Shown here: positions 5,114 through 5,304 of the stretch, piece by piece
Layout of the letters: each line of letters starts with the position of its first letter
How positions within the stretch are numbered: position 1 is the first letter of the stretch
Virus record (IMG/VR): IMGVR_UViG_3300017975_000002
Reading direction: 5' to 3' (one strand)
From: a virus
DNA length: 64,000 nucleotides
Program-made: the position numbers and the translations under genes
The notes under the pieces: model-generated
What the model was told of the DNA's origin: nothing
Seen by the model: the letters and a program-made list of their open reading frames with translations, nothing else
The model's database searches: none

Positions 5114-5304
5114 TATTTCTACGTGCTCGGATAGCGGAAGGAGGAGTGCCACGAAAGTGGAAGGCTGCCTGCCAAGCAACCGAAAGCTCCGAGCACGATA
5201 AGGTCAACTGAAACGGAGGTGGACAGGTTATAACGCTCGGTTTGGGTCCACACGCTGGCGCGTTCACGTGTACGAGTTCGATTCTCGTTGGGCCCACGAT
5301 ACAT
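5114..5304 (+). ncRNA. candidate structured small RNA downstream of the TROVE-like gene
   Basis: Non-coding gap with a 9-bp long-range stem (cgtgctcgg/ccgagcacg), GAAA tetraloop hairpins and a T-arm-like acgag-TTCGATT-ctcgt hairpin. Confidence 0.25.

Follow-up and report, generated by a model that had tools for sequence, protein, structure and literature searches.

A conserved structured RNA with a tRNA-like module beside a predicted Ro60-like gene of phages, a possible analogue of Y RNAs

Particles of the protein Ro60 and Y RNA are conserved from bacteria to humans; their bacterial and phage roles, and the origin of Y RNAs, are poorly understood. Phage Ro60 proteins with neighbouring Y-like RNAs are already known (PMC4201824, PMC12135203, PMC7824862). 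Bacterial and phage Y RNAs adjoin Ro60 genes and contain transfer RNA (tRNA)-like domains (PMC4201824, PMC12135203) that mimic the acceptor stem and the elbow of D-loop GG and T loop (PMC4201824), and their Ro-binding motif, GNCGAA or CGAA, is located close to the 5' end, in a stem with a bulge (PMC4201824, PMC12135203). In Deinococcus radiodurans, Rsr is tethered to PNPase by the Y RNA Yrn1. The D and T arms of Yrn1 have the reverse orientation of those of YrlA, with an intervening stem-loop at the position of the anticodon arm and not of the acceptor stem (PMC4201824). In the Thermus phage phiLo, the RNAs Yrl1 and Yrl2, which were picked out by a CGAA in an internal bulge, are encoded upstream of the gene for Ro60 (PMC12135203; PDB 9KOP, 9L5Y). 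For huge phages, a literature search combining TROVE and tRNA found only the brief remark that a few jumbo phages have a ROT/TROVE protein with a tRNA-like partner (PMC7824862), and a huge-phage survey (PMC7162821) mentions none of Ro60, TROVE and VWA. Here we compare with these systems a conserved non-coding RNA of ~180 nucleotides (nt; 5120-5300, + strand) in a 64,000-nt stretch of viral DNA (IMG/VR record IMGVR_UViG_3300017975_000002; hereafter the window), which lies directly 3' of a gene predicted to encode a very divergent Ro60.

The gap downstream of the Ro60-like gene is a real conserved structured non-coding RNA with a tRNA-like module. It comprises a 5' domain, a linker and the module, and is kept in 10 sequences from about five lineages of related phage contigs (the window and nine other contigs). 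A covariance model of the whole RNA (R1) scores 176.6 bits on the window and 110-187 bits across the nine other contigs. In the model-fitted alignment of the 10 sequences, paired cells amount to 94.1%, compared with 34-38% when the partners are slid, and 14 of the 34 pairs have changed on both sides, compared with 1-6 in the slid controls; not one of 500 shuffles matched the observed values of pairing and compensation. Compensatory pairs number 4 of 8 in helix P1, 3 of 4 in P2, 1 of 3 in P3, 4 of 7 in the acceptor-like helix and 2 of 5 in the T stem. A preliminary description of this gap, made from the sequence alone, had proposed a structured RNA and named conservation in relatives as a test; the helices are indeed kept by compensatory changes in the nine other contigs. 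Folding of the entire gap is no better than that of shuffles (z -0.71), and the 5' domain alone folds better than shuffles (z -3.81; 1 of 200 shuffles). Since G-U pairs occur in the helices (U5247-G5292 in the window, and T-stem and acceptor-helix positions of other members), the RNA is placed on the + strand. A coding reading of the gap is ruled out by insertions and deletions that are not multiples of three: L028 and L031 carry an insertion of ~55 nt, and the forms in L030 and L041 are shorter. At the gathering score, a scan of the whole window found no Rfam family in the gap; at E ≤ 10 the gap yields only a sub-threshold tRNA match and a chance match of Plastid-ycf2 to the T arm on the reverse strand.

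The 5' domain (5120-5199, + strand) is built from helices P1 and P2, hairpin P3 and ~35 invariant, mostly purine-rich bases, giving a stem that encloses a large internal region of invariant sequence. Helix P1 (5122-5130 with 5189-5197), in which CGUGCUCGG pairs with CCGAGCACG, closes the domain from 5122 to 5197; it is the 9-bp long-range stem of the preliminary description, and it covaries. P2 (5133-5135 with 5186-5188) also shows compensatory changes. Hairpin P3 (5149-5160; CCAC-GAAA-GUGG) has an A-U pair that covaries with G-C in 7 sequences, and its loop varies between homologues (GAAA, GGAA, GAGG or 6 nt). Of the GAAA-tetraloop hairpins described earlier, P3 stands, whereas the GAAA strings at 5183-5186 and 5210-5213 form no hairpin loop in the conserved fold. 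The Shine-Dalgarno-like purine-rich string GAAGGAGGAGUG (5137-5148) is invariant but for one position in all 10 sequences, and the core strand AAGG...GCCUGCCAAGCAACCG (5161-5182) is nearly invariant (invariant columns in alignments A2 and A5). A helix between 5137-5148 and 5164-5173 (GGAGGAGU with CUGCCUGCC) would be the sole plausible pairing; it shows zero compensatory change, and variation disrupts it. A covariance model of the 5' domain only (R2) detects no second copy elsewhere in the window.

Between the 5' domain and the module lies the linker motif ACUGAAACGGAGGUG (5207-5221, + strand). The tRNA-like module (5243-5296, + strand) consists of an 8-bp acceptor-like closing helix with compensatory changes (5243-5250 with 5289-5296), a mini D hairpin (5253-5262; CGC-UGGC-GCG, loop UGGC) and a canonical T arm (5272-5288; ACGAG-UUCGAUU-CUCGU), and has no anticodon arm. 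The T-arm-like element was correctly located in the first reading, which had overlooked that it is part of a complete acceptor/D/T module. The elements of the elbow are invariant, the D-loop GG (UGGN) as well as the T loop UUCGAUU, and the stacked acceptor and T helices are kept; the anticodon position is empty or holds a variable hairpin (~55 nt in L028 and L031). In all nine module-bearing members the -1 base can pair with the "discriminator" (U-A in 8, C-G in L034). With the Rfam tRNA model, 5244-5296 scores 20.5 bits, compared with a gathering score of 29; the alignment has a perfect 7-bp acceptor stem and the T arm, and only ~15 nt take the place of the D and anticodon arms. ARAGORN makes no tRNA or transfer-messenger RNA (tmRNA) call on the gap, and no full cloverleaf with an anticodon arm above tRNA thresholds is present. 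At position 3-70 the window has G3-C70, L003 has A-U, and L028, L030 and L031 have G3-U70. The 3' tail is ACGA in place of ACCA (5296-5299, + strand).

The RNA fits tightly between its neighbours: in every context, no more than ~10 nt separate its start from the stop codon upstream, and 8-25 nt separate its end from the following start codon. Scans for sigma-70-like promoters and intrinsic terminators found none in or beside the gap. A candidate promoter, CTGAAA-N15-TATAAC, was dropped, the other copies of the motif having no -10 box. The downstream open reading frame (ORF) encodes 194 aa (5305-5889, + strand) with no Pfam or PHROG match and likely starts at ATG 5305. As described earlier, an ORF from TTG 5242 to 5889 is in frame with this ATG and crosses the T arm; TTG 5242 is very unlikely to be the true start, because the RNA is conserved while the downstream gene varies between contigs.

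The upstream gene (3248-5113, + strand) encodes a 621-aa protein whose earlier label, "TROVE-like", proves right by structure; no sequence model shows it. Pfam at E ≤ 10 matches VWA families only and leaves the TROVE model unmatched, TROVE hits are absent from ten distant relatives scanned too, single-sequence and profile searches of PDB sequences did not find Ro60, and PHROGs and NCBIfam were uninformative. In Foldseek searches with a full-length AlphaFold2 model (predicted local distance difference test score 78.7, predicted template modelling score 0.47; domain arrangement unreliable), the best full-length matches are Ro60/TROVE structures (E 1.5e-8 to 1.5e-5, with low template modelling scores). 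The protein is predicted to have a beta-rich N-terminal domain (aa ~24-97), TROVE-like helical repeats (aa ~100-420), modelled as a HEAT-like domain with the Ro60 fold, and a C-terminal VWA domain with a MIDAS motif (metal-ion-dependent adhesion site; aa ~420-590), the MIDAS residues being invariant. Based on the Foldseek matches to Ro60/TROVE and the invariant MIDAS residues, the modelled product is a Ro60 that has diverged strongly and carries an extra beta-rich domain at its N-terminus. The Ro60 proteins of X. laevis, Deinococcus and phiLo are without this domain (aa 1-97, window 3248-3540), as apparently are smaller distant relatives of ~520-570 aa. The family is large: there are more than 1,500 metagenome homologues at ~60-72% identity, many of them encoded on contigs of 200-600 kb, and clustering at 50% identity gives 663 clusters. 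Among GTDB genomes, only two relatives were found, at 39-40% identity, in metagenome-assembled genomes, and megablast of window positions 3000-6000 against phage records gave no match.

Among the closest protein homologues (at least 68% identity), the same RNA lies directly 3' of the Ro60-like gene or past one small ORF. Beyond the window, the RNA-bearing loci are L003/L022/L036, L028/L029/L035, L030, L031/L032, L039, L041 and L037 (RNA start only). The adjacency to a Ro60-type gene that is usual for Y RNAs is thus seen in the window and seven other distinct loci. The gene 3' of the RNA differs by contig (an HNH endonuclease, a 315-aa gene and others). A GH25 endolysin is encoded upstream at RNA-bearing contigs, which we therefore regard as phage. 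The 16-mer AACTGAAACGGAGGTG occurs in 22 IMG/VR stretches; one contig is a true relative and the remainder are chance occurrences.

We consider it plausible, but unproven, that the RNA is a phage analogue of Y RNAs that partners the divergent Ro60, and put the probability of this reading at roughly 45%. It is the likeliest role because the gene immediately upstream encodes what is modelled as a very divergent Ro60. The RNA would probably be cut from a transcript shared with this gene, since it starts 8 nt past the gene's stop codon, and would probably bind the Ro60-like ring via the invariant 5' domain or the closing helices. The 3' module would act as a copy of the tRNA top half, with an acceptor helix, a D-loop GG docking on the T loop and a T arm, and its elbow may serve as a handle for enzymes that read tRNA shape (RNase P, RNase Z, the CCA-adding enzyme or a 3'-5' exoribonuclease). 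The RNA could thereby tether or gate Ro60, analogous to bacterial YrlA and Yrn1. Transcription, processing, RNA-protein binding, the part that binds and the biological outcome are what we infer here; what is shown, and speaks for this reading, is the conserved covarying RNA, its tRNA-like architecture, the Ro60 fold of the modelled protein, the gene-RNA synteny and the association of the protein family with tRNA-type genes. A nearby gene for a 3'-5' exoribonuclease, a conceivable partner, also counts in favour.

Like the RNAs of the YrlA type (Salmonella, Mycobacterium, mycobacteriophages; PMC4201824), this RNA lies beside a Ro60-type gene, falls within ~100-200 nt, mimics the D arm, T arm and acceptor with the elbow nucleotides, and has no functional anticodon arm. 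Unlike YrlA, in which the order is permuted to T-acceptor-D, its module runs D then T and is closed by a terminal helix; it has an extra invariant 5' domain, which YrlA lacks, and its place downstream of the gene leaves no space for a promoter of its own. The D-then-T order looks closer to Yrn1, because the arms of Yrn1 are opposite to those of YrlA and its stem-loop is at the anticodon position. By description and not by alignment, that arm orientation fits the D-(optional stem-loop)-T order seen here, and the 5'/3' stem of Yrn1 would take the acceptor position. No similarity of sequence or model to Yrn1 was detected, and the metazoan-like Ro-binding helix of Yrn1 is not recognisable. Compared with phiLo, the RNA here carries a tRNA-like module, and the protein is not matched by the TROVE model of Pfam and has a further beta domain at its N-terminus. 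The module also resembles the tRNA-like domain of tmRNA and tRNA minihelices in its acceptor helix, T arm, reduced D region and missing anticodon arm, and its 3' trailer ACGAA is that of a phage tmRNA at locus L043. Unlike tmRNA, it has no mRNA-like domain, tag ORF or pseudoknots, and G3-U70 is not conserved; ARAGORN and Rfam, both positive on the L043 tmRNA, are negative here.

Several observations weigh against the Y RNA analogy. The preliminary description had raised the Y RNA idea and suggested a check against Rfam; adjacency to a Ro60-like gene and the mimicry of D and T arms speak for the idea, whereas neither the Y_RNA nor the YrlA model matches the gap at E ≤ 10 (both are also absent from six homologous loci at E ≤ 1), and the Ro-binding motif GNCGAA(N)G or CGAA that distinguishes the YrlA and phiLo RNAs is not conserved, CGAA being present, by inspection of alignments A4 and A5, in the P3 loop of only 3 of the 10 sequences. 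The RNA is limited to one sub-lineage: model R2 has no match within 3 kb on either side of 66 other Ro60-like genes, and pattern scans for the 5' domain gave one viral match and only four in JGI metagenomes. The 5' domain is therefore not a general partner of the family. At L033 and L034, both from the JGI metagenome pattern scan, the RNA follows a different gene, and tblastn found no Ro60-like match anywhere on these contigs of ~1 kb each. The tRNA-like module is moreover missing from L033, which keeps the 5' domain, and the two can therefore be separated. Mini tRNA-likes of 42-56 nt that have no anticodon arm, with a 7-bp acceptor, a UGGN D hairpin and a T arm, also occur in unrelated phage contigs (L122, L147, L156, L178, L203; L137, L149, L159; L167; L195; L110; L117, L152). 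They were collected from IMG/VR by a loose D-hairpin/T-loop pattern, with 13 of 120 among the matches listed passing a pairing filter, and in the three contexts scanned (L147, L149, L167) a Ro60-like neighbour is absent. Finally, the leader that the module shares with other tRNA-type genes of the window, described below, suggests an autonomous tRNA-derived unit. Neighbours of the mini tRNA-likes include RecD2 and RusA; the one at L147, the single locus tested, matches no Rfam family at the gathering score, and a literature search on anticodon-less phage tRNA-likes found nothing relevant.

Across the wider family, the Ro60-like gene mostly stands at the 3' end of the phage tRNA array. In 43 of 61 IMG/VR loci (L044-L104, most of them on contigs of 100-620 kb), tRNA genes lie within 3 kb upstream of it; 272 tRNAs were counted upstream and 7 downstream, all on the gene's strand, and in 23 loci the last tRNA is less than 400 nt from the start codon. 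In the virus Rctr197k (L040, KX853510), an array of ~35 tRNAs ends 84 nt before the Ro60-like gene. At L043 the element in this position is a phage tmRNA (2128-2470; tag ANDNSFGQPLRAAA followed by a stop, Rfam 116 bits) that ends ~30 nt ahead of the gene and has ACGAA, not ACCA, as its 3' trailer. Four RNA-bearing loci checked (L003, L028, L031, L039) have no tRNA upstream. It is possible, if unlikely, that the 621-aa protein represents a large, so far unrecognised branch of Ro60, typical of huge phages, whose natural clients are tRNA-shaped. If so, the series from tRNA array to tmRNA to the dedicated two-module RNA of the window's lineage, in which the tRNA half is without its anticodon arm, would be a snapshot of Y RNAs arising from tRNA genes beside Ro60, and the phage Ro60 ribonucleoprotein would survey, process or protect phage tRNAs in infection, for example against host tRNA-directed defences.

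A few further features of these upstream regions were seen. The motif (C/T)GGTGTA recurs ~35-110 nt before the start codon in L047, L048, L056, L061, L068, L069, L071, L076, L082 and L085, in the gaps between tRNAs and gene, where it is possibly the Ro60-like gene's own promoter; it is absent upstream of the window's Ro60-like gene. Just upstream of the gene, L099 has two tRNA-model matches of 134-136 nt (2320-2455 and 2494-2627), with insertions of ~60 nt and no ARAGORN call. In L053 and L096, a "tRNA-Ser(aga)" that ARAGORN called 3' of the gene was discarded as a false positive inside the ORF of a 315-aa partner protein.

The window itself holds a cluster of RNA genes at 29000-29700, in which a paralogue of the module is found (29125-29265, + strand; matched by R1 only, at 10.5 bits). 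It has an acceptor GGGGGAU/AUCCUCC with G3-U70, a D hairpin GUCCGC-UGGU-GCGGAC, a T arm GCUGG-UUCGAUU-CCAGC and the tail ACGAA, with an insertion of ~100 nt at the anticodon/variable region; neither ARAGORN nor Rfam calls it. The first 10 bases of the linker motif are common to the leaders of the window's other tRNA-type genes at 29.1-29.5 kb: ACTGAANCGS has 7 occurrences in the window compared with 1.6 expected, and its four + strand copies (5207, 29098, 29274, 29451) lie 27-37 nt upstream of the 5' end of a tRNA or tRNA-like. The leader has the form ACUGAANCG(G/C), which could be a promoter or a processing leader, and a 20-nt form, AAGAYCACTGAAGCGGTCAT, is repeated at 29268 and 29445; a comparable CAACUG...AGGUG precedes the L043 tmRNA by ~35 nt. 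Other members of the cluster are a match at 29303-29369 (48 bits with the Rfam tRNA model, no ARAGORN call), an uncalled tRNA-like at ~29480-29556 with the anticodon loop CUCAUAA and a long variable arm, and a tRNA-Arg(UCG) at 29588-29659 whose acceptor stem pairs poorly. A 40-nt direct repeat of 95% identity has one copy inside the end of ORF 28584-29006 (28854-28893) and a non-coding one just before the tRNA-like paralogue (29056-29095).

These observations bear on the main rival explanation, which we find doubtful: that an autonomous mini tRNA-like gene and a separate 3'-untranslated-region or small RNA (the 5' domain) merely stand beside the Ro60-like gene. The mini tRNA-like would then be directed at enzymes or toxins that recognise the acceptor and elbow of tRNA, as their substrate, decoy or competitor, and its placement would reflect the clustering of tRNA-type genes at this position in these phage genomes. 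Such a view accounts for the same architecture in unrelated phage contigs, for the leader motif ACUGAANCGG common to the window's other tRNA-type genes and for the paralogue with the same D hairpin and ACGAA tail inside the tRNA cluster, and it is consistent with the lone 5' domain of L033, the different upstream gene in L033 and L034 and the 66 other Ro60-like loci from which the 5' domain is absent. Yet 9 of the 10 sequences, drawn from diverged lineages, carry both modules together in the same order and spacing, and known partners of Ro60 proteins include tRNA-like RNAs encoded alongside (PMC4201824); coincidental neighbourhood, moreover, explains the placement of mini tRNA-likes and not their role. 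It is improbable that the RNA is instead a cis-acting element of mRNA processing or stability, a "tRNA punctuation" at which RNase P and RNase Z cut separate messages and leave the 5' domain as a protective 3' structure on the Ro60-like mRNA. Such an element would resemble plant mitochondrial t-elements and MALAT1/mascRNA, and RNase P/Z require as substrate no more than a 7-8-bp acceptor that stacks on a 5-bp T arm. The RNA hugs the flanking stop and start codons whichever genes these belong to, the promoter and terminator scan of the gap is empty, and YrlA of M. smegmatis is cut by RNase P/Z-type processing (PMC4201824). However, tight packing of ORFs is normal in phage genomes, the ~35 invariant unpaired bases of the 5' domain argue for a specific partner and not for a generic protective hairpin, and pairing of the -1 base with the "discriminator" in all nine module-bearing members is unusual for an efficient RNase P substrate.

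A role as a mimic of ribosomal or translational components, engaging 30S subunits or factors that bind tmRNA or tRNA through two strings that complement the 16S anti-Shine-Dalgarno sequence (GAAGGAGGAG and ACGGAGGUG) and the acceptor/T-arm module, seems to us very improbable. The two strings are both conserved, and changes within the first disrupt, without compensation, the one pairing that seems plausible for it; G3-U70 is present in L028, L030 and L031, and a relative, L043, has a true tmRNA beside its Ro60-like gene. The idea is purely sequence-based, and it meets the G-C of the window and the A-U of L003 at position 3-70, the missing tag ORF and tmRNA calls, and the lack of a start codon at working distance from either string. 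We give hardly any credence to a decaying tRNA pseudogene with chance structure, or to an N-terminal coding extension from TTG 5242. The tRNA-model score is below threshold and ORF 5242-5889 does exist, but compensatory changes in diverged lineages, the invariant T and D loops and the non-triplet insertions and deletions in L028/L031 and L030/L041 contradict both versions, and the downstream ORF is not the same gene at homologous loci.

Downstream of the RNA, the window encodes the 315-aa protein (7294-8241, + strand), whose gene is a conserved companion of the Ro60-like one; the middle of the protein is a charged coiled coil, and it matches no family and nothing in the PDB. By tblastn its gene is found at 67 loci and mostly begins no more than tens of bases from the Ro60-like stop codon; in the lineage of the window, the two are separated by the RNA and some variable genes. 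The 3'-5' exoribonuclease (8786-9532, + strand), similar to Rv2179c (Pfam PF16473, E 4.6e-08), belongs to the same gene block, and homologues lie downstream of the Ro60-like gene in L001, L002, L036 and L046. Other neighbours are an ATP-grasp protein of the R2K clade (428-1357, - strand), a dCTP deaminase-like protein (6415-7014), a protein with a Tad2-like (Thoeris anti-defence) domain (9708-10199) and an HNH endonuclease (10444-11025). Elsewhere downstream of the Ro60-like gene, an RNA ligase (PF09414) is encoded ~3 kb away in L038 and an AAA ATPase at 6121-7365 in L039.

What is new here is the architecture of the RNA, which matches no Rfam family at the gathering score, the size and divergence of the Ro60 branch, and its systematic place after tRNA arrays. 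Even without a partnership, the locus adds a conserved phage non-coding RNA that is new and would exemplify a broader class, not yet described, of mini tRNA-likes lacking an anticodon. If the RNA does partner the protein, it would represent a Y RNA architecture beyond the reach of current models, would reveal a large branch of Ro60 invisible to Pfam and would physically link Ro60 to phage tRNA arrays and tmRNA. The idea that Y RNAs derive from tRNAs, and a role of phage Ro60 in tRNA quality control or counter-defence, would then become directly testable.

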